A stretch of DNA of 64,000 nucleotides, from assembly GCA_034430795.1 (NCBI GenBank), contig DAOUDJ010000209.1, positions 3,762 to 67,761 of the forward strand, in the 5' to 3' direction. Within the stretch, counting starts at the first letter, position 1. Each line of letters opens with the position of its first letter. The DNA is from Anaerolineales bacterium (GTDB lineage Bacteria > Chloroflexota > Anaerolineae > Anaerolineales > E44-bin32). Below the pieces are notes generated by a model. It worked only from the letters and a program-made list of their open reading frames with translations. It ran no database searches and had not been told where the DNA came from. Positions 408 to 60,982 of this stretch are shown in pieces. The position numbers were made by a program, and so were the translations under genes.

Positions 408-1820
408 TTACCCGATCGAGCCTTCCATCTGAAGCTGGATCAGACGGTTCATCTCTACGGCGTACTCCATCGGAAGCTCTTTAACCAGTGGTTCGATGAA
501 ACCGGAGACGACCATCGTGATCGCTTCTTCCTCGCTTAATCCACGGCTCATTAAGTAGTAAAGCTGTTCCTCGCCAACCTTGCTCACCGAGGCTTCATGC
601 CCGATGCTGACATCATCCTCGTCGATTTCAATATAGGGGTAAGTGTCCGAGCGCGATTGCGGATCCAGAAGCAGCGCATCGCAAACAACATTCGACTTCG
701 ATCCGACCGCACCGTCATGAACTTTCAGCAATCCACGATAGGATGACCGGCCGCTGCCCTGGCTTATCGATTTAGCGGTAATCTTACTGGTCGTATGTGG
801 TGCGACATGGATCATTTTCCCGCCTGTATCCTGATGCTGCCCGTCAGTGGCAAAAGCCATGGAAAGGATCCCGCCGCGTGCGCCCTTTCCCATCAAGTAG
901 CAGGATGGGTATTTCATCGTAAGTTTGCTGCCGATGTTGGCATCCACCCAGTCATGGGAGGCATCTTGAAAAACCATCGCCCGCTGGGTGACCAGGTTGT
1001 AAACGTTGTTCGACCAATTCTGAATCGTTGTGTAGCGGCTGCGTGCGCCGCGTTTGACGATGATCTCGATCACACCGCTGTGCAAAGAATCCGTCGAGTA
1101 AGTCGGCGCCGTACAGCCCTCCACGTAGTGAACATCCGCACCTTCGTCGACGATGATTATCGTGCGTTCAAATTGACCGATGTTGGCAACATTCAGGCGG
1201 AAATAAGCTTGAAGCGGGAGCTCCACTTTCACCCCGGGCGGGACGTAGACAAAAGACCCGCCCGACCACACCGCACCGTTCAATGCGGCGAACTTATTGT
1301 CGGTATAGGGGATGACCGTTCCGAAATATTCACGGAATAAATCTGGGTGCTGCCGAAGGCCTTCTTCTATGCTGAGGAATATTACGCCTTGTTCTTCGAG
1401 ATGCTCCAGGATGCTGTGGTACACCATTTCCGATTCGTACTGCGCACCAACGCCAGAGAGAAACTTTTGCTCGGCCTCGGGGATGCCCAGCTTATCGAAG
1501 GTCTCCTTGATCGAATCAGGAACATCATCCCAGGATTGCCCTTCCTTCTCCGCCGGTTTGACGTAGTAGTAAATATTATCCAGGTCAAGACCGCTGACAT
1601 CGCCACCCCAGGTTGGCATCGGCCGTTCTAAGAAGTGTTCGTATGCCTTCAAGCGGTATTCGAGCATCCACTTCGGTTCGCCTTTGATTGCCGAGATCTG
1701 CTCCACTACTTCTCGGTCCAAACCTTTACGGGTTTTGAATACCGAGACGTCGGGATCGCTAAATCCGTACTTATATTGATCAATATCTTGGAGATTCTTG
1801 AGATCCCCTGAAGCAGCCAT
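408..1820 (-). CDS. sufB: Fe-S cluster assembly scaffold SufB
   Basis: 470-aa ORF with full-length SufB-like sequence ([65 protein letters not shown]). Lies directly downstream of sufC. Confidence 0.95.
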
Positions 1821-2825: not shown

Positions 2826-3458
2826 ATGGCCTCCAAAACCCGCGAAACGATACTACATACTCTACATGCCCGCAGCAGTTGCACAGTGAAGGAATTGGCT
2901 GAAGCGGCGGGCATATCCCCCGTTTCCGTGCGCCACCACCTGGGGAAATTGCAGATTGATGGCCTGCTGTGCATAGAGGAAGTGAAGCACGGCGTTGGTC
3001 GGCCACATCAATTGTTTTCCTTGACGGAAGAGGCTCACGAGCTTTTCCCCACCCGCTATCTCCGCCTAACCAATCGGCTTCTTGACCAGATGAAGGAATC
3101 GCTGCCCCTCATCTACTATGAAGGTGTGCTTACAAACATCGCCGATGCGATGGCCGAGGGATATGCCAGCCAGCTCGAGGGGCTTCCATTGACAGCGCGC
3201 CTGGTTCGTCTTATTGAACTGCTTAACGAAGAGGGTTTCACCGCGGAGTTTGAGCGGCGCGAGGACATCATCGTGATCCGTGCATTTAGCTGCCCATATT
3301 TTGCAATTGGACAGAAACACCCTGAGGTCTGCATGATCGATCAAACCTTCATCGCCAAGGCGCTATCCTTACCGGTCGAGCAGGTGCAAAGCATGCTGGA
3401 TGGTGATGCACATTGTGCCTTCTCTGTCCAGTTAATGAGTGAAAAAGAACATGAGTGA
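2826..3458 (+). CDS. winged-helix (ArsR/DeoR-like) transcriptional regulator, SufR-like
   Basis: 210 aa. N-terminal HTH (TVKELAEAAGISPVSVRHHLGKLQIDGLL). C-terminal half carries three Cys (CPYFAIGQKHPEVC ... HC). Divergent from the suf operon. Confidence 0.65.
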   Translation: MASKTRETILHTLHARSSCTVKELAEAAGISPVSVRHHLGKLQIDGLLCIEEVKHGVGRPHQLFSLTEEAHELFPTRYLRLTNRLLDQMKESLPLIYYEGVLTNIADAMAEGYASQLEGLPLTARLVRLIELLNEEGFTAEFERREDIIVIRAFSCPYFAIGQKHPEVCMIDQTFIAKALSLPVEQVQSMLDGDAHCAFSVQLMSEKEHE

Positions 3459-3795
3459 AGAAACAACCCCAACGACAATATGGGAAGCGGATTCAACCCA
3501 TCCAGAAGCAGCCAAAACGCTTCGGATTCGACTGCGCGAAGTGATGGACCCTGAGCTCGGGCTCAACATTATCGAATTGGGCTTAATACGAGATGTGACG
3601 TTCGATGAGGAGAGCGTCCAACTGAAAATGATCTTGACGACGCCCTTCTGCCCTTACGCAGCGGCGTTGATCGAAATGACACGCAGCAAAGCCATCGAAG
3701 CAACGGGGATTGAGACGATGGTCGAGCTCGGCATGGAGATGTGGGAACCATCGATGATGGAGGCTGGGACCGGCGGCGAGTGGGGGCTGTTCTGA
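3439..3795 (+). CDS. DUF59 / MIP18-family Fe-S assembly protein (SufT-like)
   Basis: 118 aa. Contains LREVMDPELGLNIIELGLIRDV and the conserved TTPFCPY motif. Overlaps the upstream stop. An alternative ATG at 3451 would give an ATGAGTGA overlap. Confidence 0.75.
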   Translation: MKKNMSEETTPTTIWEADSTHPEAAKTLRIRLREVMDPELGLNIIELGLIRDVTFDEESVQLKMILTTPFCPYAAALIEMTRSKAIEATGIETMVELGMEMWEPSMMEAGTGGEWGLF

Positions 3796-3826
3796 AGGTA
3801 AGGGCGGGATAATATCGCCTCCCGCT

Positions 3827-3861
3827 GTCATCTCGAGTCCAACGAGAAATCCCTATTACGA
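3827..3861. repeat. 35-nt dispersed repeat motif, left boundary copy
   Basis: Reads gtcatctcgagtccaacgagaaatccctattacga. Its last 19 nt (cgagaaatccctattacga) are identical to 4672..4690. Confidence 0.85.
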
Positions 3862-3940
3862 TCCTGTAGAGATCCCCTTCTATTAAGAATGAAACCCATC
3901 TTTCCCAAAGACCCGAACACCCTATTGAGTCGCCTCAGGG

Positions 3941-4640
3941 ATTTCTCATGGTCTGTTGTAATTGTAGGGGGTCCGGGGAAAAACTGTTCCCCCCGGAATT
4001 CCCGCTGGGGGGTTGGGGGGAAAATAACAGAGCACACCACCGGCCGGGCAGAAACCAGGTTAGCATTAACTCAACCGAGAATCGGTTAACTCCGCGAAAC
4101 AATCTCAACCTTTCTTGTGTGGAGATTGCCGCGTCTCCCTGACAAGATCTCAATGATAGGGACGGTAGTCGCATTTCTCACGGCCTCTTTTTATTGTAGG
4201 GGGTTTGGGGGGCAGAAAAAAATGAGCACGCCCCACACTGAGCAGAAACCGGATCAGCGTTAACTCAACCGAGAATCGATATGCTCAACGAAGCAATCTC
4301 CTCCTTTCTTGCGCGGAGATTGAGATCCTTCGACACCGCCCCCGACAAAACCGGGGATCAGAGGACAGGCCTCGCCCAGGCGGGCTCCTGACTAGGGCGG
4401 TATCCGGATTTCTCATGGTCTGTTGTAATTGTAGGGGGTCCGGGGGAAAACTGTTCCACCCGGAGCCCCCGCTGGGGGTTTGGGGGGCAGAAAAAATGAG
4501 CACCATACAGATCGAGCTGAACCCAGATCAGCATTAACTCAACCGAGAATCTATATGCTCAACGAAGCATTCTCCTCTTCTCTTGCGCTGAGATTGCCAC
4601 GTCGCCCTTGCGGGCTCCTCGCAATGACAAGCACGGAAAC
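3941..4640. repeat. three tandem copies of a ~233-bp non-coding unit
   Basis: The anchor 'atttctca' recurs at 3941, 4173 and 4408, giving periods of 232 and 235 nt. Shared blocks are attgtaggggg..tttggggggcagaaaaaatgagcac, agaaacc.g.t.agc.ttaactcaaccgagaatc, and caatctc(N13-15)gagattg. Copy 2 lacks a ~37-nt hairpin-forming insert (tccggggg..ccccgga) that copies 1 and 3 have. ORFs here are short and repeat-derived. Confidence 0.85.
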
Positions 4641-4655
4641 ACTTCGTCCCCCTTT

Positions 4656-4690
4656 GTCATTTCAAGCGAAGCGAGAAATCCCTATTACGA
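4656..4690. repeat. 35-nt dispersed repeat motif, right boundary copy
   Basis: Reads gtcatttcaagcgaagcgagaaatccctattacga. It is a direct repeat of 3827..3861. It also forms an imperfect inverted repeat with ctcctcgcaatgaca at 4615..4629. Confidence 0.85.
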
Positions 4691-4778
4691 CACTTAGAAA
4701 TTCACCTTGAATGAAAAAGACCTCTTTCCCAGAGGTCCAAGCACTCTCAATATTGAATATAGCAGGGAGAACGCAGTC

Positions 4779-5090
4779 CTACATCGCCACTCTCGTTTCA
4801 GATTCCACCCGCCGCCGATTGGAGATGAGCCCAATCAGGCTGACCCAACCGAGGAGAATACGAATGATCAACCCGATCGAGGTAACCGCCAATAAAAACA
4901 CCGTGGCGATCACAACGATGACCATCCAGCTCGAGAGCGGACCTCTGCCGTGATAGGTGACCAATCGAGCGCGCAATCGCCGGATAAACTGCACACTGGG
5001 CTCGACCGGGACAAGGGTGTCCGAAAGTAATTCTTCCAACCGCTTTTTACTTAGGCTTGCATCCATCTTTTTCTCATCCCGCTTTTTCAT
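4779..5090 (-). CDS. small single-pass membrane protein, putative anti-sigma factor
   Basis: 103 aa with one hydrophobic helix (WMVIVVIATVFLLAVTSIGLIIRILLGWVSLIGLI). Overlaps the 3' end of the ECF sigma gene by 17 nt. The assignment rests on context only. Confidence 0.45.
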   Translation of the reverse strand: MKKRDEKKMDASLSKKRLEELLSDTLVPVEPSVQFIRRLRARLVTYHGRGPLSSWMVIVVIATVFLLAVTSIGLIIRILLGWVSLIGLISNRRRVESETRVAM

Positions 5091-5670
5091 CTTTTACAGA
5101 TCTGGCTTCGGAGCTCTCTTCTTCAATACGCCTTGCTTCTGCACGCATGGTATTCAACGTCCGGTGATATAGGCTTTTTACCGCCCCCTCACTTCTACCC
5201 ATCACTTCTCCGACCTCCGCGTTCGACATGCGCTCGACAAATTTAAGGATCAATAACTGTTGCCGGTCGGGAGGGAGTTGCCGCACAATCGCCATCAGCA
5301 GCTCGGTCTCCTCATGCGCCATCGCCTCCGATTCTGGGTGCTCAGCCACTTCGCTCACCGCTACATGTTGATCGAGCGGGACGACAGGGCGACGACTGCG
5401 ATCGCGGTGCCAATTCGCAACCAGGTTGTGTGCGATGCGATACAACCAGGCGGTAAAGGGAACTCCTTTATCCTCGAACGTTGCCACATGCCGCAGAGCT
5501 CGCTGGAAGACCATCTCTGTCAAATCTTCGGCATCGTGATAGTTCCCCGTCCGATAATAGATGTAGTTGTAAATCTTCCGGATATGTCGCTCGTATAGCT
5601 CGCCGAAAGCCTCGGGATCTGAACCCGCTTGCCGCGCCAGCGCCATATCATCCATCGCCGGTTCTTTCAT
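5074..5670 (-). CDS. ECF-type RNA polymerase sigma-70 family factor
   Basis: 198 aa. Region 2 (YNYIYYRTGNYHDAEDLTEMVFQRALRH..FTAWLYRIAHNLVANWHR) and region 4 (LPPDRQQLLILKFVERMSNAEVGEVMGRSEGAVKSLYHRTL). Confidence 0.9.
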   Translation of the reverse strand: MKEPAMDDMALARQAGSDPEAFGELYERHIRKIYNYIYYRTGNYHDAEDLTEMVFQRALRHVATFEDKGVPFTAWLYRIAHNLVANWHRDRSRRPVVPLDQHVAVSEVAEHPESEAMAHEETELLMAIVRQLPPDRQQLLILKFVERMSNAEVGEVMGRSEGAVKSLYHRTLNTMRAEARRIEEESSEARSVKDEKAG

Positions 5671-5757
5671 TGCGCACCGGTCCTGAATCCTGAACTTCTA
5701 TAATGGAGAACACCAATATTCATCATTCGTTACCGTTGCCATGATCGTGATTTCGAA

Positions 5758-8628
5758 ATGAGTCCGCGCTCACACTTCTCCCTCAAAATGCCTTCGCAGT
5801 ATAGCATAGGGCACTATCAGGGATGCTATAATGCCCCCCTCAATCCTATGCAATCACTAATCTCCTTCGACCTCGAAACCACTGGTCTGGATCCCGCTCG
5901 CGATGCCATTATTGAAATCGGTGCGGTTCGATTTCGCGGCGACCGGGTCGAAGATGAATGGTCAGAACTCATCTTCCCCGGCCGCCCGATTCCCCCCGCC
6001 ATCGTTCAACTCACCGGCATCACGGACGCCATGCTCTCAAGTGCACCGCGGATCACTAATGTTCTCGCCGATCTGGATGCTTTCGTCGGCGACCTGCCCA
6101 TCCTGGGGCATAACATCCAATTCGACCTGGCATTCATGAAGCGCCGCGGCTTATTCGAACTAAATCCCTACCTAGACACTTTCGATCTGGCTTCTGTCAT
6201 GCTTCCCTCGGCTGGACGGTATGGTCTCCAAGCATTGGCTCAGTCACTCGGCGTGCCCGTGCGAGCTGCCCACCGGGCGATAGATGACGCCCACACAACT
6301 CGCCAGGTTTTTCTTCAGCTATACGAGGAAGCGCGGGCAATCCCATTCCCCATCCTGGAGGAGATTACGCGCTACGGAGAGGAGATTGAATGGGGAGCCG
6401 GCTGGGTATTCGATCTGGCCTACGGCGAGAGACGTGAGAAAGAAGAACCAACGAAGGGTGAATTCCCGACCCTGTTCCCAAAAGCCCTCATTCCGGAAGA
6501 AAAGCTAACCCCATCGGCTGAGCCTGGACCACTTGATGTGGAGGAGATCGCCTCCATTTTCGAGCCGGGTGGACAGATGGCAAAAGCATTCCCAGAATAC
6601 GAAGATCGTCCACAGCAGATCAGCATGGTGAGAGCGGTGACGGAAGCGCTCTCCGAGAGCAAGCACTTAATGGTCGAGGCGGGAACGGGGACGGGGAAAT
6701 CGATGGCTTACCTGGCGCCTGCCTTCGCATGGGCAGCACAAAATGGGCGGCCAGTGGTCATCTCAACCAATACGCTCAACCTCCAGGATCAATTGATCCA
6801 CAAAGACATCCCGGACCTGAACCAGGCTCTGGATACGGAATACCGTGCGGCTGTGCTTAAAGGACGCGGCAATTACCTCTGCCCCCGCCGCTTCAACACC
6901 TTACGAAGCCTGGGACCGAGATCACCGGAAGAGACACGTGTCCTCACCAAACTCCTTCTCTGGCTGACCAACGGCGGCAGCGGCGATCGCAGCGAGCTCA
7001 ACCTGCCTCGGGAGGAGTCTTTAGCCTGGTCGAGATTGTCTGCAGATAACGAGGACTGCTCAATCGAGAATTGCGTTCAACATACGGGTGGGACTTGCCC
7101 CTATTTCCGCTCTCGACTTGCAGCCGAGCACGCCCATATCATTATCGTTAATCACGCTCTCTTGTTAGCTGACATCGCCATCGGGAACCGCGTGATCCCC
7201 GAGTATCAATACCTTATCATCGATGAGGCGCATCACCTAGAGTCAGCGACGACCAACGGTCTGAGCTATAGCGTAACGGAGATGGAGGTTCAACGCGTGC
7301 TGCGCGACCTGGGAAGCCATACAAGGGGGCTCCTGCGCCAGATTTTAGAAGTCGCCCGCGCCTCGCTCCCTCCCGAGGGTGCCACACAAGTCGATCGTAT
7401 CATCAACGCAGTCTCCGACCGTACCGTCGAATGCATCGAGATGTCCAAGACACTTTTCGGACACATCTCTGAAGTACTTGAGAATCAGCGTGAAGGGCGG
7501 GAGCTGGGATTCTACGGGCAGCAGATGCGCATCGTACCCGCCACGAGAACACTCCCGGATTGGGAAAAGGTGGAGATCTCCTGGGAAAATCTGCGCGGCC
7601 CGCTCGCCAAGATCGTTGAGAAACTCGTAGAAATGGCAGATGATCTTGAAAGTCTGGCAGAGACGGGCGTCGATGCTGCGGAAAACCTGTCGGTCGCTGC
7701 ACGCATCGCCCGGCGCAGCCTCGGTGAGGTCTACAAACACCTCGAACGGATGATCTTCGAGCCGGACCCGGCGGATATATATTGGGCTAATGTCCGGCCC
7801 CCTGGCGAGCGCCTTTCGCTGCACGCTGCACCACTCGAAGTCGGACCGCTCGTGGAGCGCTATCTTTGGCACGAAAAGGAAGCCGTAATTATGACCTCGG
7901 CTACGCTCACAACAGCCGGCGACTTCGACTATATCCGTCGGCGGTTGTACGCGCAGGATGCGGACGAGCTGGCGTTGGGATCACCCTTTGATCACGAAAC
8001 ATCCACGTTGCTCTATCTCGTGAACGACATACCGGAACCCGTCCAACGACAAGCCTATCAGCGCGCTCTCGAAAGCGGATTGATCCGCCTGGTGAAGGAG
8101 ATCGGAGGAAAAACAATGGTCCTCTTCACCTCGAATGCCCAACTCCAGACAACCGCCCGCGCCTTGGCTGAACCTTTGACAAGTGAGGGCATTCATCTCT
8201 TCGAGCAGAGCCGGGGAGCCTCCCGCCACGCCTTGTTGGAGAGCTTCCGGTCGACAGAGCAAGCCGTCCTGCTCGGCACACGCTCTTTTTGGGAAGGGGT
8301 TGACATCCCCGGACCGGCGCTCTCAGTGCTTGGGATCGTGCGCCTGCCCTTTGCAGTCCCCAACGATCCAATAATCGCCGCTCGTGCAGACACGTATGAA
8401 TCTCCCTTTGATGAATATATGCTTCCCGAGGCCATCCTGCGTTTCCGGCAGGGGTTTGGCCGTTTGATCCGCACTCGCTCAGATCGGGGCGTCGTAGTGG
8501 TCTTCGATCGCAGGATCATCTCGAAATTCTACGGCCGCATGTTCGTCGATTCACTCCCCCGCTGCAGCGTCAAGCTCGGGAGCCTGGCAGAACTTCCGGA
8601 AGCAGCTTCTCGCTGGCTTGGTCTGTAA
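5758..8628 (+). CDS. dinG: DinG-family (XPD-like) ATP-dependent helicase with N-terminal DnaQ-like 3'-5' exonuclease domain
   Basis: 956 aa. Exonuclease motifs ISFDLETTGLD, GHNIQFDLAF and HRAIDDA. Helicase motifs EAGTGTGKS and DEAHH. Four Cys at 6880..7097. The true start may be the ATG at 5848 (MQSLISFDLE). Confidence 0.88.
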   Translation: MSPRSHFSLKMPSQYSIGHYQGCYNAPLNPMQSLISFDLETTGLDPARDAIIEIGAVRFRGDRVEDEWSELIFPGRPIPPAIVQLTGITDAMLSSAPRITNVLADLDAFVGDLPILGHNIQFDLAFMKRRGLFELNPYLDTFDLASVMLPSAGRYGLQALAQSLGVPVRAAHRAIDDAHTTRQVFLQLYEEARAIPFPILEEITRYGEEIEWGAGWVFDLAYGERREKEEPTKGEFPTLFPKALIPEEKLTPSAEPGPLDVEEIASIFEPGGQMAKAFPEYEDRPQQISMVRAVTEALSESKHLMVEAGTGTGKSMAYLAPAFAWAAQNGRPVVISTNTLNLQDQLIHKDIPDLNQALDTEYRAAVLKGRGNYLCPRRFNTLRSLGPRSPEETRVLTKLLLWLTNGGSGDRSELNLPREESLAWSRLSADNEDCSIENCVQHTGGTCPYFRSRLAAEHAHIIIVNHALLLADIAIGNRVIPEYQYLIIDEAHHLESATTNGLSYSVTEMEVQRVLRDLGSHTRGLLRQILEVARASLPPEGATQVDRIINAVSDRTVECIEMSKTLFGHISEVLENQREGRELGFYGQQMRIVPATRTLPDWEKVEISWENLRGPLAKIVEKLVEMADDLESLAETGVDAAENLSVAARIARRSLGEVYKHLERMIFEPDPADIYWANVRPPGERLSLHAAPLEVGPLVERYLWHEKEAVIMTSATLTTAGDFDYIRRRLYAQDADELALGSPFDHETSTLLYLVNDIPEPVQRQAYQRALESGLIRLVKEIGGKTMVLFTSNAQLQTTARALAEPLTSEGIHLFEQSRGASRHALLESFRSTEQAVLLGTRSFWEGVDIPGPALSVLGIVRLPFAVPNDPIIAARADTYESPFDEYMLPEAILRFRQGFGRLIRTRSDRGVVVVFDRRIISKFYGRMFVDSLPRCSVKLGSLAELPEAASRWLGL

Positions 8629-11198: not shown

Positions 11199-11280
11199 GG
11201 GGAAGTGCTGGAATTGGCAGACAGGCGTGACTTAGGATCACGTGCCCTCGGGCGTGTGGGTTCAAATCCCACCTTCCCCA
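11199..11280 (+). tRNA. tRNA-Leu, anticodon UAG
   Basis: The 82-nt sequence folds into a cloverleaf by hand. Acceptor stem GGGGAAG/CTTCCCC. Anticodon arm CGTGA-CTTAGGA-TCACG. Long variable arm TGCCCTCGGGCGT. T arm GTGGG-TTCAAAT-CCCAC. Discriminator base A. CCA is not encoded. Confidence 0.9.
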
Positions 11281-11373
11281 CTGTGGATCGTTCGATTGCT
11301 TCGGTCTCACGTGGAAGATCGAGCCATCAATTTTCCCCCGAAAATATTCAAAACTGCCAGGAAGGAACGTATA

Positions 11374-12780
11374 TTGAAAATCGAAAGACAGGACCTGGAA
11401 AACCGCCAAGTTGAACTTCAAATTGAAGTCGCTTCGGACCAGCTTCACACAGCAATGCGCTCCGCCGCACGACGTCTCAGCCAAGGGACCAAGATTCCCG
11501 GGTTTCGTCCTGGGAAGGCGCCCTACGAGGTTGTCGTGGGCAAATTCGGCGAAGATGTTGTCTTCGAAGAAGCGCTGGACAGCCTCGGCCAGGAAATCTA
11601 TCGTGACGCGCTCGAAGAATCCGAGATCGAACCCTACGCTCCCGGCGCGCTTGAGGAAGTCATCCGTGAAGACCCGCTCAAACTTCGCTATACGGTGCCC
11701 CTCGCGCCTGAGGTCGATCTAGGCGCATATCGGGATATTAGAATCCCCTTTGAAGGCGCGGAAGTCACAGATGAAGCTTTTGAAGAGGCACTGGAAGGAA
11801 TTCGCCAGCGACAGGCATTGATTGAACCTGTCGATCGCCCTGCCGAAGAAACGGATTTAGTGATCATAGATTTATCCGGCGAACTTCTTGATCCAGAGGA
11901 TGAGGAAGACGCAAAATTAATCGACATGAAGGACATCTCCGTCCTGGTCGACCCGGAAACTGATGTCCCCACCCCTGGCGTTATGGAGCATCTTTTAGGA
12001 TTAGCTGCCGGGGATGAAAAATTTTACGAGTATACCTTTGCCGACGACCATCCTACTGAAGATCTGCGAAATCGCGCAGCCAGGTTTGACATCAAGTGCC
12101 TGGAAGTGAAATCCCGCCTTATCCCGGATTGGTCAGATGACCTGGCGCAAAATCTGGGCGATTTTGAAAGTTTGCTGGATCTGCGAGTGAAACTTCGCGA
12201 GAATCTTCAGGAACAGGCAGAAACTGAGGCGGAAAAACAACACCGGGACGAAATCATGCAGAAACTCGTTGAAGGAGCTTCTGTGGATTATCCCCCCATC
12301 GTCCTTCAGGAAGAGACCGGGCATCTCATACAAGATCTCCGTATGCGTCTGAGCAACCAAAACTTAGCGCTCGAGGATTATTTAACAATCGAAGGAAAGA
12401 CAGAAGAAGATCTCCGCACTGAGCTGGAGCCTGAAGCAACGGAGCGTATTAAGCGCGGCCTTGTGTTAAGCAAGCTTGTCGACGTTGAAGAACTGAAGGT
12501 AGAAGATGAAGAAATTGAAGCCGGGATCAAGCGCCTTATCGAACCCTTGGGAGCGGATGCGGATAAACGACTTCTTGAAGCTTTCGAATCACCCGCAGGC
12601 CGCCAGCGTATTGCAATGGATATTCTCACCGATAAAGCAATACGCCGAATAGTCGCAATCGCCAGAGATGAACCAGAAGAACAGGATGTATCTACTATAG
12701 AAGTTATTAGCAAAGAAGAGAATAATGGTATGGATTCTGCACCTGAGGTCTCAGGCGCAGATGACATGAAAAAGGAGTAA
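11374..12780 (+). CDS. tig: trigger factor (ribosome-associated PPIase chaperone) with acidic C-terminal tail
   Basis: The track ORF (from 11242) overlaps the tRNA, so I trimmed it to the TTG at 11374, which follows GGAAGGA. The N-terminus ([18 protein letters not shown]...[11 protein letters not shown]) is typical of trigger factor, and the tig-clpP-clpX order is the standard one. Confidence 0.88.
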
Positions 12781-28729: not shown

Positions 28730-28812
28730 GTCATTGCGAGCGGAGCGAAGCTATCTTCCTCCATCCTTATCGAGAGATTGCAACGTCGCCCTGGCGGACC
28801 TCTCGCAATGAC
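28730..28812. repeat. 83-bp palindromic (MITE/REP-like) element
   Basis: Terminal inverted repeats gtcattgcgag (28730) and ctcgcaatgac (28802). The internal segment gagattgcaacgtcgccc matches gagattgccacgtcgccc at 4590. Confidence 0.75.
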
Positions 28813-28839
28813 ACGCGCGGCAATGCCTTATCATCTTTT

Positions 28840-28871
28840 GTCTATTTCGAGTACAGCGAGAAATCCTTACG
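28840..28871. repeat. dispersed 35-nt repeat motif copy
   Basis: gtctatttcgagtacagcgagaaatccttacga, compared with gtcatttcaagcgaagcgagaaatccctattacga at 4656. Confidence 0.7.
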
Positions 28872-29262
28872 ATGCTGCTCATGAGGGCTCCACTTGTGGA
28901 TACGAATAGAAATCGCTCTGCCGTGATCCACTTCGGGGCGGGCGCCCAATTGGTGCTCGCCACAACACGGGGTGGATGCCAGCGCTGAGCCGCGGCGACC
29001 TCCCCCACCCCGAGTAACTCACCATCCATCCTGCCTGGATTAGCATCGTGCTGGATGCTTGCCCACCCTGTCCCCCTAATCTTTCACTCACCCGGCCACC
29101 CAACTCCGAGAGAGCTCCCCGACGCCAGATCTTTAACGAATAGGAAATCCGGACAAAAGAAAGAAACTTTGTAAGCGATATGGTGTTGTGTAAAGTAGCA
29201 TCCAAAGACCTACCCCTGAAAAATTGAATGTTTGGGATACAACATCCCTGGAGGGGATCGTT

Positions 29263-39238: not shown

Positions 39239-39472
39239 ATATCGCACAGCAAAATCGAAGATGTCATGTTGAGCTGCTCCTGAACCGCTTGTCCCAATGA
39301 AATTGCAGACGGGGATCTCCCAGTGCAAACTCTAGATTTTGTGATTGCGAGCTATCCAGCGCCGCTCAGGGTAAACTGAGCTGGAGTATCTCGTTCTTCG
39401 AACGTTCGGGGGTTTTTTTGCCAGGGGCGAGATTCTTCGTCGCTCCACACCTCAGACAATGTGAAGAATCCT

Positions 39473-39523
39473 GTCATTTCGAGCATAGCGAGAAATCCCT
39501 GGGGTGTTGTTCTTGAGGACTCC
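39473..39523. repeat. dispersed repeat motif copy (both sub-motifs)
   Basis: gtcatttcgagcatagcgagaaatccctggggtgttgttcttgaggactcc combines the 4656-type and the 28646-type motifs. A related gtgattgcgagc lies at 39341. Confidence 0.75.
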
Positions 39524-39704
39524 ACATGTGGAAAAGAAAGAGCCCATCGTTCCTTAGTTTCTTAAACGATGAGTTGTGTCATCTCAGCGATTTCTTCAAT
39601 AAGCAGGCTCCCCACACCCTTCAGTCGGATGACTGAGCTGGGTGGCTATCACCTGCATAAGTTTAAATTGATGGTTTTAAATAGGAAAAAGGGTGTTCGT
39701 GATG

Positions 39705-56531: not shown

Positions 56532-59500
56532 TTAACCTTCGACTTTACGTAGAGCGATCCGTAACGATTCTCCGTCGAAATGATGCTCGGTCGTGATCAC
56601 GCCCTGCGGGTTTGCCCTCGACTGCATACTCTCAGCGATGACTTCTCCTTGAATATAGACGCGGTGCACATCGATGGCCTGAGCAAGCTTATCACTTGCA
56701 GTATATTGCACCTCGATGCCATCATCCACCTGAAGATTCGCCTGCCTGCGCAAGTCTTGCACGCGGCGCACAAACTCTCGCGCCAACCCTTCCAGGACCA
56801 ACTCTTCTGTCAGCTCTGTAACCAACGCCGCTACATAGGGTCCATCCGCAACAGCGGAAAAACCCTCGTGAGCTTCGATGCGTAGTTCCACTTCATCCGC
56901 CGTCAACTGGATGGCTTGATCTTCGATTTTTACCTCGATCGGTTTCCCTGCCAGCAGAGCAGACGCACTTTGAGATGGATCAAGCTTCCCAACAGCGTCA
57001 CGGATCGCGGGGAAGAGCGAACCATATTTCTGCCCTAACTGCTTTGGCAGCGCCTTGAGTTGGTACTCGACTGCTTCTGCAGCGGCGTCGAGCAAGCGTA
57101 CTTTTTTAACATTTAATTCATCTCGGATCAGCGCATCGAAACGATTGACAATAGCACGCTCCTCTGAACCTGAGACTGCGAAAACAACTTCGGATAGAGG
57201 TTGCCTCAGCTTCCTGTTAGCTTTGTTCCGCGCTGCATGCCCCATGGAGATGAGCATTTGAACGAATTTCATCTCCTTCAATAAATCCTCATCCACCTCA
57301 GCTGGATCCACCTCCGGCCAAGGGCGATGGTGGACACTCTCAAGCGCGTCATCATCGATGCTCCGTACGAGGTTTTGGTACATCGTCTCCACAACAAAGG
57401 GCGTGAAAGGAGCTAGAACGTGGGTCAAGGTCAGCAGCGCTTGATAGAGCGCAGTATAGGCTGCATGTTTATCCGCATCCGAGGCTTCATCCACACCGGT
57501 TTTCGCCCAGAACCGGCGCCTACTCCGACGGAGGTACCAGTTGCTCAAGTCATCCAGGAAATTCCCGATCACTTTAGCAGCGCGGTCGGGCTCGAAGGTT
57601 TCAAGAGCATGTGTCACCTGATCGATTGTCTGAAGCGAACGTGAGAGAATCCAACGGTCCATAACACTGAACCGGACATCACCACGGTCGGCCGGTGTCC
57701 ACCCATCGAGATTGGCATAGGTAACGAAGAAGGCATACACATTCCACAGTGGTATCAGGAACTGTCGCCGGGCTTCGGTCGCGGTCTCAAATCCAAAAAG
57801 CAAGTCCTTCTCAGGCCTGTGGTTGCAATAGACCCACCGCATGACATCTACACCCATTGCGTCGGCGGCTTTGTTAAACTCGATCATATTGCCCGAAGAT
57901 TTATGCATCGGTTGCCTATCTTCGGCGAGCAAAGTCGCATAAGTAAACACGTGTTTGAATGGCGACTTCCGCTCGAGAATCGTGCTCAAAGCCAGGAGGC
58001 TATAGAACCAGTTTCGGAACTGTCCCGGGAATGATTCGCTGATTAGATCGGCAGGATACCACTCCGACCAATACTCCTTATCGGTGTTGTAGCGGAGCGT
58101 ACTCATCGCCACAACCCCCGCATCCAACCAGGGATTGCCAACATCCGGGATGCGTTCGATAACCGCGCCACATTCACTGCATTCAATCTTCACAGCATCG
58201 ATGTACGGTCGGTGTGGCGTGTGACCCTCAAAAACGTCCCAGCCCTCAACCGCTCTCGCTTCGAGTTCCTCGCGACTTCCAATCACTTCGAAATGCCCGC
58301 AGGATTCGCACTCCCAGATTGGCAGTGCCAGCCCGTAATAGCGCTTCTTCGAGAGCATCCAGTTATGCATATTCCGCAGCCAATCGAGCTCACGCTCCAG
58401 TCCGAAGGAGGGATGCCAAGTTGTTTCTTCTTTCACGACCTCCATAATCTGATAACGCAGGTTGTTTAACTTCTCCTCTTCTGTGACCTGCTCGTAGGGT
58501 TTGTCTAGTTGTTCGCCCATGTTGATGAACCATTCATCCACAAGATGGAATACAAGCTCTTCCCCGCAACGCCAACAAACCGGGTAGCGATGGATATAAT
58601 CCTCGATATTGTAAGTCAAGCTCTTTTCAGTCAGATTTTCGAATATTGGCTGAGCAACTTTCTGGACATTCATCCCCGACAGCCAGCCAAACCCATCGAG
58701 GAAAAGACCGTCGTTGTCTAGCGGTGCAATAACCGGCAGGCCATGTTCCTTGCTCAACTGGAAATCCTCGGCACCACAGCCAGGCGCGATGTGTACGATT
58801 CCAGTCCCCTCGTCTTCGCCCACTTCTTCCCATAGGATCACGCGATGCGCTTCAGGACTTCCCTGTTCTTTTTGAACGGGCAGCTCATCAAAAGGACCAT
58901 CATAAGTCCAACCTTCCATTTCTTTGCCTTTAAGCTCCGCTTCAACTTCGTAGGAACCCTTCAATATATGCAATGTCCCCCTGCTCAGATAGAAAAACTC
59001 ATCCCCCTGACGGACCTTGACATAATCCAAGTCGGGACCAACGGCGGCAGCGACGTTGCTCGTGAGCGTCCATGGCGTGGTCGTCCAAATGAGCAAGCTC
59101 TCACGTTCTCGATCGCGGAGCGGAAAGCGCAACGTGATACTCGGGTGGGTGATTTCCTTGTACCCCTCGGTCACAATCTCATGCTGGCTTAAGCCCGTAC
59201 CACAACGCACACACCACGGCATAACATCACGCCCTTTGAAAATCCAGCCCCGATCGTAGCAGGACTTGAGCACGGCCCAGATGGTGTAGTTGTTGTCATC
59301 TGAAAAAGTGAAATATGATCCGCCTAGTTCCGGCATGCCTAAGCGGCCCACGATGGATTCAACGCTGCCCGTTACCGGTCCGTGCGGCCCTTCCACTGTG
59401 ATTTGCTGGGATGGATCCTCCGCCATCTTATCTCGCAGAGTCCGCAGCATGTCGGGATCGTTCCAATCCATCCAGAACCCCAGGCGGATGCTCTGCTCTG

Positions 59501-59894
59501 TCTGCACCGCGGAGTATTTCAAGACCTGTTGCTTGCACAAATTGACAAAGCGATCGAGGCCGAATTCTTCAATTTCACGCTTGCTGTTGAAACCCATCTC
59601 CCGCTCGACATTGACCTCAACCCATAAACCTTGGCAATCGAAACCGTTCTGGTATCGCGTTCGAAACCCCTGCATGGCTTTAAAGCGATGGAAGAGATCT
59701 TTATATGTCCGCCCCCAACCATGATGAACTCCCATAGGGTTATTGGCCGTAATCGGACCATCAATGAAGGACCAACGTGGACCGTTTGACCTGAGTGCGA
59801 CGAGTTTTTTGAAAGCCTGAATTTCATCCCAGAACTTTAAGACTTCTTTTTCAAGTGCGATGAAATCTACCTGGTTGTCGACGGATTTAAACAT
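56532..59894 (-). CDS. ileS: isoleucyl-tRNA synthetase (long, type-2-like form)
   Basis: 1120 aa. HIGH variant PMGVHHGWGR, KMSKS variant MHKSSGN, CP1 editing region, and Zn-ribbon-like CxxC pairs. Confidence 0.95.
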   Translation of the reverse strand: MFKSVDNQVDFIALEKEVLKFWDEIQAFKKLVALRSNGPRWSFIDGPITANNPMGVHHGWGRTYKDLFHRFKAMQGFRTRYQNGFDCQGLWVEVNVEREMGFNSKREIEEFGLDRFVNLCKQQVLKYSAVQTEQSIRLGFWMDWNDPDMLRTLRDKMAEDPSQQITVEGPHGPVTGSVESIVGRLGMPELGGSYFTFSDDNNYTIWAVLKSCYDRGWIFKGRDVMPWCVRCGTGLSQHEIVTEGYKEITHPSITLRFPLRDRERESLLIWTTTPWTLTSNVAAAVGPDLDYVKVRQGDEFFYLSRGTLHILKGSYEVEAELKGKEMEGWTYDGPFDELPVQKEQGSPEAHRVILWEEVGEDEGTGIVHIAPGCGAEDFQLSKEHGLPVIAPLDNDGLFLDGFGWLSGMNVQKVAQPIFENLTEKSLTYNIEDYIHRYPVCWRCGEELVFHLVDEWFINMGEQLDKPYEQVTEEEKLNNLRYQIMEVVKEETTWHPSFGLERELDWLRNMHNWMLSKKRYYGLALPIWECESCGHFEVIGSREELEARAVEGWDVFEGHTPHRPYIDAVKIECSECGAVIERIPDVGNPWLDAGVVAMSTLRYNTDKEYWSEWYPADLISESFPGQFRNWFYSLLALSTILERKSPFKHVFTYATLLAEDRQPMHKSSGNMIEFNKAADAMGVDVMRWVYCNHRPEKDLLFGFETATEARRQFLIPLWNVYAFFVTYANLDGWTPADRGDVRFSVMDRWILSRSLQTIDQVTHALETFEPDRAAKVIGNFLDDLSNWYLRRSRRRFWAKTGVDEASDADKHAAYTALYQALLTLTHVLAPFTPFVVETMYQNLVRSIDDDALESVHHRPWPEVDPAEVDEDLLKEMKFVQMLISMGHAARNKANRKLRQPLSEVVFAVSGSEERAIVNRFDALIRDELNVKKVRLLDAAAEAVEYQLKALPKQLGQKYGSLFPAIRDAVGKLDPSQSASALLAGKPIEVKIEDQAIQLTADEVELRIEAHEGFSAVADGPYVAALVTELTEELVLEGLAREFVRRVQDLRRQANLQVDDGIEVQYTASDKLAQAIDVHRVYIQGEVIAESMQSRANPQGVITTEHHFDGESLRIALRKVEG

Positions 59895-59902
59895 CTAACA
59901 CC

Positions 59903-60613
59903 TCACGGTTCAAGCTCAATGACCAAGCGTTTATTGATAGCGCCCTTGCTCTTGTAGTCCACGATGCGGATCTGACCTACTTCCTCAGTGTTGGCAACGT
60001 GGGTCCCGCCGTCGGCTTGGAGATCAAGTCCTTCGATTTCCACCACTCGAACTTCTTGAATCCCAGGAGGCAGGAGATTGATTTTCGTTCGGATCAGGTC
60101 AGGGATCTGGAAGGCTTCATCGCGCGGCAAGATTGCAGTCTTAATGGATCGAGCCGCACTGACCTCTACATTGATTTTCTTTTCGATCTCGACGACGAGT
60201 TCCTTATGCATGGATTCAAACTCAAAATCCATTCGTCCACGTAAGGGTTGCATATTTCCGCCGGTTACGCTTGCACCATAATCTCGCCATATCACCCCGC
60301 ATAGGATGTGCATCGCGGTGTGGACGCGCATCAGCTGGTAGCGTCGCTCCCAATCCACTTCACCCTCCACTTCCGCGCCGGCTTCGGGTGGGTCTCCATC
60401 AATTTCATGCCAGAGCTCACCATCGACCTTCCGAACTCGTTTCACGGACAGGGTTTGGTCCCCCAATTGAAATACACCGAAATCGCAGGGCTGTCCCCCT
60501 CCGCCGGGGTAGAAAGCGGTCCGGTCCAGGGAAATTCCGTGCTCCGAGACACCCATCACCTTTGCAGTGAAGGTCTTCAAGAACGAGTCTTCATGGAACA
60601 GCAATTCCGTCAT
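59903..60613 (-). CDS. alaX: AlaX-M-type alanyl-tRNA editing protein (AlaRS second-additional-domain homolog)
   Basis: 236 aa. Contains FYPGGGGQPCD, the HxxxH motif (VHTAMHILCG) and GGTHV. Its stop lies 8 nt before the ileS start. Confidence 0.85.
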   Translation of the reverse strand: MTELLFHEDSFLKTFTAKVMGVSEHGISLDRTAFYPGGGGQPCDFGVFQLGDQTLSVKRVRKVDGELWHEIDGDPPEAGAEVEGEVDWERRYQLMRVHTAMHILCGVIWRDYGASVTGGNMQPLRGRMDFEFESMHKELVVEIEKKINVEVSAARSIKTAILPRDEAFQIPDLIRTKINLLPPGIQEVRVVEIEGLDLQADGGTHVANTEEVGQIRIVDYKSKGAINKRLVIELEP

Positions 60614-60683: not shown

Positions 60684-60982
60684 AAAAGCTCCCGTCCCAA
60701 ACAGGGACGAGAGCACATTACTCCCGTGGTACCACCCTGATTCCCATCAACAGCGGGCTCTCAGTCAGGTACGACCAACAAAATCAGTGGCTTATACCTG
60801 CGCCTTGGGTAACGGCAGGCGATCCCGGCTTCCTTACTTGCGATGTACTGCGTTCGGGTTGCAGCTCCGGAGGGATTTTCCGACTGTTATCCTGACCCGG
60901 CTCTCACCGTCCCCGGGCTCGCTGACAGGCAGACTCAGACGTACTCGTCTCCATCAAAGCTTTTTTCTTCTATTGAATTTAT
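60684..60982 (-). promoter_or_regulatory. T-box riboswitch leader (probable Ile specifier) controlling alaX-ileS
   Basis: Read on the minus strand. K-turn AGC-UUU-GA-UGGAG pairs with CUCCG-GA-GCU. Specifier loop is ACGAGUA / GAAAAUCC. AG bulge is AGCGA. Distal loop is GGACGGUGAGAG. An F-box-like CCGUUA is present. The T-box sequence AAUCAGGGUGGUACCACGGGAG lies at 60742..60721. The terminator CUCUCGUCCC-UGUU-GGGACGGGAG followed by CUUUU lies at 60713..60684. Confidence 0.88.

Follow-up and report, generated by a model that had tools for sequence, protein, structure and literature searches.

The 64,000-nucleotide stretch of Anaerolineales bacterium DNA analyzed here (hereafter the window) carries three head-to-tail copies of a noncoding unit of ∼233 bp in a gap between two convergent genes. 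We assign a rough probability of 0.55 to the reading that this block is a lineage-specific, nonautonomous cluster of mosaic palindromic repeats, akin to repetitive extragenic palindromes (REPs) and bacterial interspersed mosaic elements (BIMEs), that entered the gap and expanded there. Comparison of the copies with one another and with those of other genomes reveals a mosaic anatomy, dispersal of hairpin modules, a presence/absence series among relatives, a GTAG-tagged hairpin, a history of deletion, and a lack of RNA-gene signatures. Coordinates are collected in Table 1.

A sequence-only reading of the window had proposed the three units, and these are borne out by our analysis, with starts at 3939, 4171, and 4406. 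A repeat search recovers in-register copies at 3928, 4160, and 4395, spaced by 232 and 235 nt, and a 123-nt repeat family at 4006, 4200, and 4474. Mean column identity in the three-way unit alignment is 75%, and Tandem Repeats Finder missed the array because the units are too diverged and contain indels. All three units carry an exact 18-mer, TTAACTCAACCGAGAATC, that is found nowhere else in the 64 kb; three matches were reached in 0 of 100 shuffles.

Each unit is a mosaic in which a conserved core of 120-160 nt lies between half-hairpins of a dispersed module family. The core carries a GTAG-tagged 13-bp G/C hairpin plus three invariant boxes. In the window, the core body is placed between the left arm of a reverse-complemented module Z (GGATTTCTCA) and the inner left arm of a module Y palindrome (GAAGCAATCTCC). 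A further hairpin, CAATCTC-N15-GAGATTG, had been described, with a spacer of 13-15 nt, as shared by the units. It is perfect in units 1 and 2, whereas unit 3 has one mismatch.

Modules of the form GTCATTnnGAGCGAAGCGAnnAATC, or GTCATTnnGAG(C)GAAGCGAnnAATC, surround every core. The nn positions are complementary, giving ATTGC/GCAAT in module Y (a long palindrome), ATTCT/AGAAT in X, and ATTTC/GAAAT in Z. This complementarity (GC/GC in Y, CT/AG in X, TC/GA in Z) was read by eye, and the list of regular-expression matches was prefiltered for complementary Y and Z modules and is therefore no independent test. The modules also hold a GCGAAGC motif in their loops, a mini-hairpin that is very stable. 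Such a pattern suggests that hairpin formation in single-stranded DNA or RNA is under selection.

The modules also occur away from the array. A blastn comparison of the gap with the rest of the window matches 4563-4684 to 28746-28869 (73% identity over 124 nt, E=4.5e-16) and 3825-3946 to 39471-39595, where a module Z lies at 39472-39498. Both matches fall in module clusters that have no core. Across the window and seven other loci (L006, L008, L016, L029, L035, L043, and L061) the order of X, Y, Z, and hairpin H varies, so that palindromic units in variable order and orientation alternate with conserved nonpalindromic motifs, as is characteristic of BIMEs. The contigs of relatives tend to end within modules, and that of a near-identical strain (L026) ends within module Z.

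Two observations concern individual module loci. Locus L061, at about 790-830 (minus orientation), reads GGGATTTCTCACCCCCTACAGGGGTTCGAAATGAC when written as the plus strand of the window. Its Z-type hairpin carries GTAGGGGG in the loop, in opposite orientation, exactly at the site where unit 1 of the window begins, which hints that the 5′ end of the core may have arisen by rearrangement inside a Z hairpin. In addition, contig L016 begins (positions 1-140, upstream of its module array) with paired hairpins, CCACACAGCTTGCTGTGGGG and CCCCGCAGCTTGCTGCGGGG, and a GGGGGTTTGGGGG tract that may represent another repeat family.

The orthologous gap was examined in close relatives, which were reached through homologs of the protein encoded to the right of the gap (87-93% amino acid identity to that of the window). 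Including the window, six states of this gap are observed, which constitutes an insertion polymorphism of the kind expected for a miniature inverted-repeat transposable element (MITE). The mutated core of one state (L029-L032) has lost everything from the GAGCAC box to the 18-mer. A second locus, downstream of a HerA-like ATPase gene, behaves similarly: relatives at 90% and 81% amino acid identity have an empty gap of 73-99 nt followed by a radical-SAM gene, and this HerA/radical-SAM gap is filled in some relatives and empty in others. Gain and loss at two independent loci, together with a third context, is the behavior of mobile or recombining repeats rather than that of a conserved syntenic gene. 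The array entered the gap after the split from those close relatives whose gap is empty.

The sequences that bracket the array had been read as 35-bp direct repeats sharing 19 identical nucleotides. The identical 19 nt (CGAGAAATCCCTATTACGA) are present, but the repeats are longer, about 145 nt at 65% identity. Each of these flanks (A_left and A_right) aligns with the entire single spacer of locus L033, and therefore they represent a duplication of the old spacer rather than a target-site duplication. The intrinsic terminator in this spacer is predicted still to work only in the gene-proximal right copy. Both spacer copies are also present in L061, without any core.

The G/C hairpin follows the motif GTAG + GGGGTCCGGGGG-AAAACTGTT-CCCCCGGACCCC, with a 9-nt loop. 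It had been noted as an extra hairpin of units 1 and 3 that unit 2 lacks. This distribution holds, but the spacer is 12-13 nt instead of 10 and the stem of unit 3 is imperfect. The stem is perfect over 13 bp in L008 (-32.7 kcal/mol) and imperfect in unit 3 (-29.2 kcal/mol), unit 1 (-21.3 kcal/mol), and L015. Unit 2, L006, and L016 retain only GTAG and the left arm. The junction of unit 2, GTAGGGGGT / TTGGGGGG, is the exact product expected of a deletion between two GGGGGT repeats of the long form. Two separate deletions between G-runs, with different breakpoints, gave the short forms (...GGGGGT|TTGGGGGG in unit 2; ...GGGGGTCC|GGGGGG in L006 and L016), and therefore the long form is ancestral.

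The core has homologs outside the locus, as the sequence-only reading had left to be checked. Exact-pattern scans located it in two Anaerolineales metagenome-assembled genomes (L006 and L008) and two metagenome contigs (L015 and L016), and a profile search finds one core per foreign locus. All further matches of the exact-pattern scans lack the remaining core. The four contigs provide two other contexts: in L006 and L016 the core lies downstream of the HerA-like gene, and in L008 and L015 it is flanked by genes for a secreted protein and a membrane protein. In all three contexts, the downstream gene is directed toward the core. The upstream gene likewise points to the core in the window, L008, and L015; the upstream side of L006 and L016 is cut by the contig end. 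In every case, the right arm of a Y palindrome adjoins the core. Searches with blastn of plasmid and phage collections returned nothing similar.

Among viral contigs, matches to the 17-mer and to TTGTAGGGGGTYYGGGGG all lack the remaining core. The TTGTAGGGGGTYYGGGGG matches occur in 13 IMG/VR contigs (L048-L060), for example at 9914-9931 of L050 and 5163-5180 of L059. Several lie in AT-rich intergenic DNA (e.g., ...TATACTTGTAGGGGGTTTGGGGGACAGCAC), an odd context, and their count is within a rough chance expectation.

The divergence among the units is uneven. Identity in the middle segment is 67-73% among the units and 76-78% between units and foreign copies. Units 1 and 3 agree at 36 of 36 positions of the 5′ segment, and units 2 and 3 at 17 of 18 positions of the 3′ segment. 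Because the units are this diverged and mosaic, the array must be old, and a recent neutral duplication or an assembly artifact is excluded as its origin. Conservation is concentrated in blocks: the longest stretch without a difference measures 18 nt in the three units (permutation p=0.02) and 16 nt when seven copies are compared (p=0.002). The box was kept while the units diverged, and therefore the triplication is not only old but also partly constrained. The invariance of the 17-mer across genomes is partly a matter of ascertainment, since the foreign copies were located with that pattern; the sole core found by synteny (L029) does not have the box.

These findings can be accommodated by the following scheme. 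The modules would move as single-stranded DNA hairpins handled by an HUH/Y1 transposase (of the REP-associated tyrosine transposase [RAYT] or IS200/IS605 type) encoded elsewhere in the genome, and the invariant boxes would be kept because this handling needs them. Growth to three units could have occurred by repeated insertion of the element beside itself, or else the repeated hairpin modules could have recombined unequally; gene conversion would have followed. For the host, the consequence is probably no more than the presence of hairpins in the 3′ untranslated regions of both convergent operons.

Several results weigh against this repeat-cluster reading. No transposase, RAYT, or integrase gene is found in the window (∼45 annotated genes, all housekeeping) or at the homolog loci examined, and the neighbors of other module copies are housekeeping open reading frames (ORFs) or ORFs without a Pfam match. 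The unit ends have neither terminal inverted repeats nor a short target-site duplication; the half-hairpin GGATTTCTCA at the start of the units and the Y right arm at their end do not form an inverted pair. Copy number appears low: within the 64 kb the core is confined to the gap, a search of 185,579 species representatives for the exact 17-mer gives a single occurrence in each of only 2 genomes, and the longer GAGCAC-N28-32-box pattern is found in two metagenome contigs only. Generic GTAG hairpins show no excess, with 13 in the window versus 5-16 (about 10) in shuffles, and the tens to thousands of dispersed copies typical of GTAG-REPs are not seen within 64 kb, where the GTAG-G5 hairpin is confined to this array.

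Sequence constraint is a further difficulty. Relative to the foreign consensus, the window units differ at 1 of 57 box positions versus 35 of 153 mid-segment positions (Fisher p=1.2e-4). Between L006 and L016, the HerA genes are 92% identical at the DNA level and the core is 88% identical, whereas the adjacent modules are unalignable. Box conservation and retention of the L006/L016 core agree equally well with a selected gene and with a requirement of the element itself. The suggestion of the sequence-only reading that the block might be a composite MITE-like insertion is upheld in part. Its variable presence in relatives, the core in two other contexts, and the mosaic of dispersed modules agree with it, but terminal inverted repeats are lacking and the flanks are not a target-site duplication.

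The principal rival is that the units are three paralogous genes for trans-acting small RNAs (sRNAs), a possible but unlikely alternative. The 5′ box (GGATTTCTCA...TTGTAG) would then act as a noncanonical promoter, with transcripts beginning near GGGGG. Target mRNAs would pair with the single-stranded, invariant UUAACUCAACCGAGAAUC as the seed, and the H/Y hairpin would stabilize or end the transcript. Divergence of the paralogs outside the seed would resemble that of multicopy sRNA families such as Qrr, OmrA/B, and the tandem NsiR1 array of Nostoc. The blockwise conservation, the contrast between box and mid-segment, the apparently single core per foreign genome, the persistence of the L006/L016 core despite module turnover around it, and a box predicted to be mostly unpaired on the plus strand are all in its favor. 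This proposal explains the constraint on the box and the low copy number. It does not account for the missing promoter and terminator or for the patchy, nonsyntenic distribution of the core: at the orthologous locus, the closest relatives have either no core or a decayed one, and in others the core is found at three unrelated loci. Moreover, the 17-mer invariance on which it draws is subject to the ascertainment described above.

The transcription signals expected of such genes were sought. No sigma-70-type promoter or intrinsic terminator was found within or beside the units, although promoter rules for Anaerolineales are poorly known. A candidate -10 element is not conserved and reads TTTTGT in L006 and L016. 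The only good terminator in the gap region (4738-4718, minus strand) belongs to the operon to the right. Sigma-54 and extracytoplasmic function (ECF) promoter consensus sequences (GGAAC-N16-CGT for the latter), compared by eye, misfit some copies and were rejected.

Structure predictions are likewise unsupportive. Minimum free energy z-scores of the units, computed on single sequences, range from -0.3 to -2.0 on either strand, and RNAalifold yields -13.4 kcal/mol (plus) and -13.5 kcal/mol (minus) for seven cores. None of 27 predicted pairs shows a double-sided compensatory change on either strand, a comparison of low power with seven sequences. A 9-bp minus-strand stem, GGUUGAGUU/AACUCARCC, was rejected as evidence of structure because it is kept mostly through G-U pairs, and transitions opposite a G/U-rich invariant arm would yield the same pairs.

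The sequence-only reading had recognized no known RNA family in the block, and Rfam 15 scans agree. With E<=10 over 3000-6000, only a chance mir-232 match appeared (16 bits versus a gathering score of 67), and a scan of the whole window at gathering scores reported only a T-box leader and a tRNA. Its other proposal, a tandemly amplified structured-RNA gene, gains no positive support: there is no Rfam match, compensatory pair, stable fold, sigma-70 promoter, or terminator. Because the 18-mer box is constrained, the proposal nonetheless keeps a low probability. It is conceivable, though unlikely, that the core is an undescribed Anaerolineales RNA on a REP-like carrier, with three functional paralogs in this genome; such an RNA might belong to a trans-acting sRNA family whose seed is the invariant 18 nt, or it might be encoded by the element as a guide or bridge for a recombinase or nuclease encoded elsewhere.

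A related and quite improbable explanation is that the units are a nonautonomous mobile element encoding its own functional RNA, which a recombinase or nuclease encoded elsewhere would use in trans. The omega/reRNAs of IS200/IS605 and the bridge RNAs of IS110 are RNAs of this guide or bridge type. Such an element would reconcile presence/absence polymorphism with constrained boxes, and it would fit both the GTAG hairpin and the invariable junction of the core with the Y right arm. However, no partner gene is present in the window or at the homolog loci examined, neither a conserved RNA fold nor covariation is evident, and no copy could be defined in which a variable "guide" segment stands beside a constant scaffold.

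Even less probable is that the units serve a host protein as arrayed DNA binding sites, with the boxes as putative recognition sites for a nucleoid-associated, partition, or site-specific recombination protein. Conservation at the sequence level without RNA-type covariation is what this model predicts, and there is precedent in Escherichia coli BIMEs, which carry an integration host factor (IHF) binding motif between REPs. However, the boxes are neither palindromic nor iterated within a unit, they do not match the IHF, dif, or parS consensus by eye, and the absence of the array from close relatives makes a conserved chromosomal role unlikely. Integron attC sites were also considered and rejected, since RYYYAAC-like words are present but the GTTRRRY partner and an integrase are lacking. 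Finally, a recent neutral tandem duplication or assembly artifact of ordinary spacer DNA is scarcely credible: the arrangement is head-to-tail and a gene-free convergent gap tolerates extra DNA, but the middle segments differ by 27-33%, copies from other genomes are at least as similar to the units as the units are to one another, conservation of the core extends to four foreign contigs and two other contexts, the boxes are nonrandomly conserved, and copies so diverged cannot stem from assembly collapse or expansion.

The gap had been described as free of credible ORFs, and we concur. Its eight small ORFs have no Pfam match even at E<=1, every reading frame is broken by indels between units, frames are not conserved between units, and ARAGORN found no tRNA or tmRNA in the gap. 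A small ORF that follows the core in L006, L008, and L015 (MNEILRHYVPQYD..., MNEILRHYVPQYDIGQEP...) lies within module X, is not conserved in L016 or the window, and is probably spurious. The label "anti-sigma" previously given to the 103-amino acid protein to the right of the gap is plausible by position but lacks Pfam support; we use it below for convenience.

Table 1. Features of the window, of core homologs, and of orthologous gaps in close relatives
Feature	Position or length	Strand	Description
PF01883 (DUF59/FeS_assembly_P) gene	3439-3795	+	left of gap
Gap	3796-4778		983 bp between two convergent genes; three cores
A_left	3796-3941		first ancestral DUF59/anti-sigma spacer copy; 72% identical to whole 162-nt L033 spacer
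A_left module Z	3826-3852		TGTCATCTCGAGTCCAACGAGAAATCC
A_left decayed terminator copy	about 3892-3915		from anti-sigma operon; folds at only -7.1 kcal/mol
Unit 1	3939-4170	+	core 3939-4100; nhmmer E=3.6e-50 versus core profile
Unit 1 5′ box			GGATTTCTCA...TTGTAGGGGGT; GTAG at 3964-3967
Unit 1 GTAG-tagged G/C hairpin	3967-3997
Unit 1 GAGCAC	4030-4035
Unit 1 invariant box	4066-4083
Unit 1 hairpin H	4100-4128		followed by Y-right-arm-like tail, 4129-4165
Unit 1 CAATCTC hairpin arms	4100-4106 / 4122-4128
Unit 2	4171-4405	+	short-form core 4171-4295
Unit 2 GTAG	4196-4199
Unit 2 GAGCAC	4224-4229
Unit 2 invariant box	4260-4277
Unit 2 hairpin H	4293-4322
Unit 2 CAATCTC hairpin arms	4294-4300 / 4316-4322
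Unit 2 end	4323-4405		5-nt bulge and linker with CCCCGAC...CCGGGG hairpin; Y-right-arm-like end
Unit 3	4406-4624	+	core 4406-4569
Unit 3 GTAG	4431-4434
Unit 3 G/C hairpin	4434-4470
Unit 3 GAGCAC	4498-4503
Unit 3 invariant box	4534-4551
Unit 3 hairpin H	4568-4596		imperfect; fused to Y right arm GAGATTGCCACGTCGCCCTTGCGGGCTCCTCGCAATGAC
Unit 3 CATTCTC hairpin arms	4568-4574 / 4590-4596		one mismatch
Unit 3 Y right arm	4590-4628		overlaps first 4 nt of A_right
A_right	4625-4778		second ancestral spacer copy; 80% identical to L033 spacer
A_right module Z	4655-4681
A_right intrinsic terminator	stem 4738-4718, then TTTTTC	-	intact; of anti-sigma/ECF-sigma operon; -17.6 kcal/mol
103-aa single-pass membrane protein gene ("anti-sigma")	4779-5090	-	right of gap
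ECF sigma gene	5074-5670	-	overlapped by the 103-aa membrane protein gene
Core-free module cluster	28730-28890	+	complete Y palindrome (GTCATTGCGAGCGGAGCGAAGCTATCT...AGAGATTGCAACGTCGCCCTGGCGGACCTCTCGCAATGAC), then module Z
Core-free module cluster	39270-39600	+	modules X and Z; minus-strand terminator downstream of rimM
Short ORF after core, L006	2560-2650	-
Short ORF after core, L008	2318-2380
Short ORF after core, L015	about 925-990
Gap, L027/L028	209 nt		empty, no module
Gap, L033	162 nt		module Z and terminator only
Gap, L035-L038	354 nt		Y and Z, no core
Gap, L029-L032	534 nt		Y, mutated core (GTAGGTGG), Y′, Z
Gap, L061	more than 547 nt		both spacer copies, reverse-complemented Z hairpin, full Y, no core
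Gap, window	983 nt		three cores

Two other RNA features were noted elsewhere in the window. The T-box leader at 60700-60966 (minus strand) scores 109 bits, above its gathering score. It lies upstream of a gene for a 236-amino acid protein with AlaX/ThrRS-editing-like domains (59903-60613, minus strand) and also upstream of an ORF of 1120 amino acids (56532-59894, minus strand). A tRNA-Leu gene (11199-11281, plus strand) lies directly upstream of a trigger factor-ClpP-ClpX cluster. The mechanically called trigger factor ORF (11242-12780) overlaps this tRNA, and its true start is probably further downstream.

To our knowledge, repeat biology in Chloroflexota is almost unexplored. The states of this gap (empty, one module, several modules, decayed core, three cores) form a clean series in which the gain, shuffling, and loss of hairpin modules in Anaerolineales can be followed. 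The conserved core with its GTAG hairpin could be used to seek the responsible HUH transposase. Recognizing the modules also aids annotation, since they break metagenome assemblies and yield spurious small ORFs. If the core is transcribed, then it would constitute a new family of RNAs associated with mobile hairpin repeats.

Among known systems, tandem paralogous sRNA genes (the NsiR1 array in Nostoc, OmrA/OmrB, and Qrr1-5) resemble the array in their head-to-tail arrangement and in divergence everywhere except a short, invariant, seed-like block. They differ in that the units described here have no recognizable promoter or terminator, occupy a nonsyntenic locus, and are embedded in REP-like modules. 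MITEs and palindrome-associated elements derived from IS200/IS605 share a size of 230-280 bp, noncoding character, hairpins at or near both ends, and polymorphic insertion. In contrast to these elements, our units have no terminal inverted repeats, no short target-site duplication, and no known parent element, and the repeats that flank them are copies of ∼145 nt of old spacer.

Enterobacterial BIMEs are similar in having palindromic units in both orientations with short conserved nonpalindromic motifs between them, in the variation of module order and number by locus, and in their placement in extragenic 3′ regions. Their sequences are unrelated and belong to another phylum, whereas the core described here is far longer and apparently low in copy number.

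A further close likeness is to the GTAG-REPs and REPINs (Di Nocera et al. 2013, PMC3733652). GTAG-REPs comprise a GTAG tag, a stem of 5-13 bp, and a loop of 2-20 nt; they are frequently found in tandem clusters that include flanking DNA, are sited between convergent ORFs, are thought to be mobilized by RAYT transposases, and have been reported in Chloroflexi (PMC3733652). The array agrees with them in anatomy, since an unpaired GTAG adjoins a G/C-rich 13-bp stem with a loop of about 9 nt and G-T pairing occurs in stems. It also agrees in its place between convergent ORFs (those of GTAG-REPs being convergent or unidirectional), in its tandem copies with flanking DNA, and in its variable presence among close relatives. 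The array differs in having only one GTAG hairpin per ∼233-bp unit, inside a longer conserved nonpalindromic core, in the absence of both a dispersed GTAG-REP family and a RAYT gene from the 64 kb, and in a hairpin that is dispensable, having been lost independently in unit 2 and in L006/L016. No description of the core or modules was found in Rfam, in plasmid and phage collections, or in literature searches that included the module sequences. We therefore file the block under a well-known kind of element, the clustered palindromic extragenic repeats, to which this core and these modules are new.

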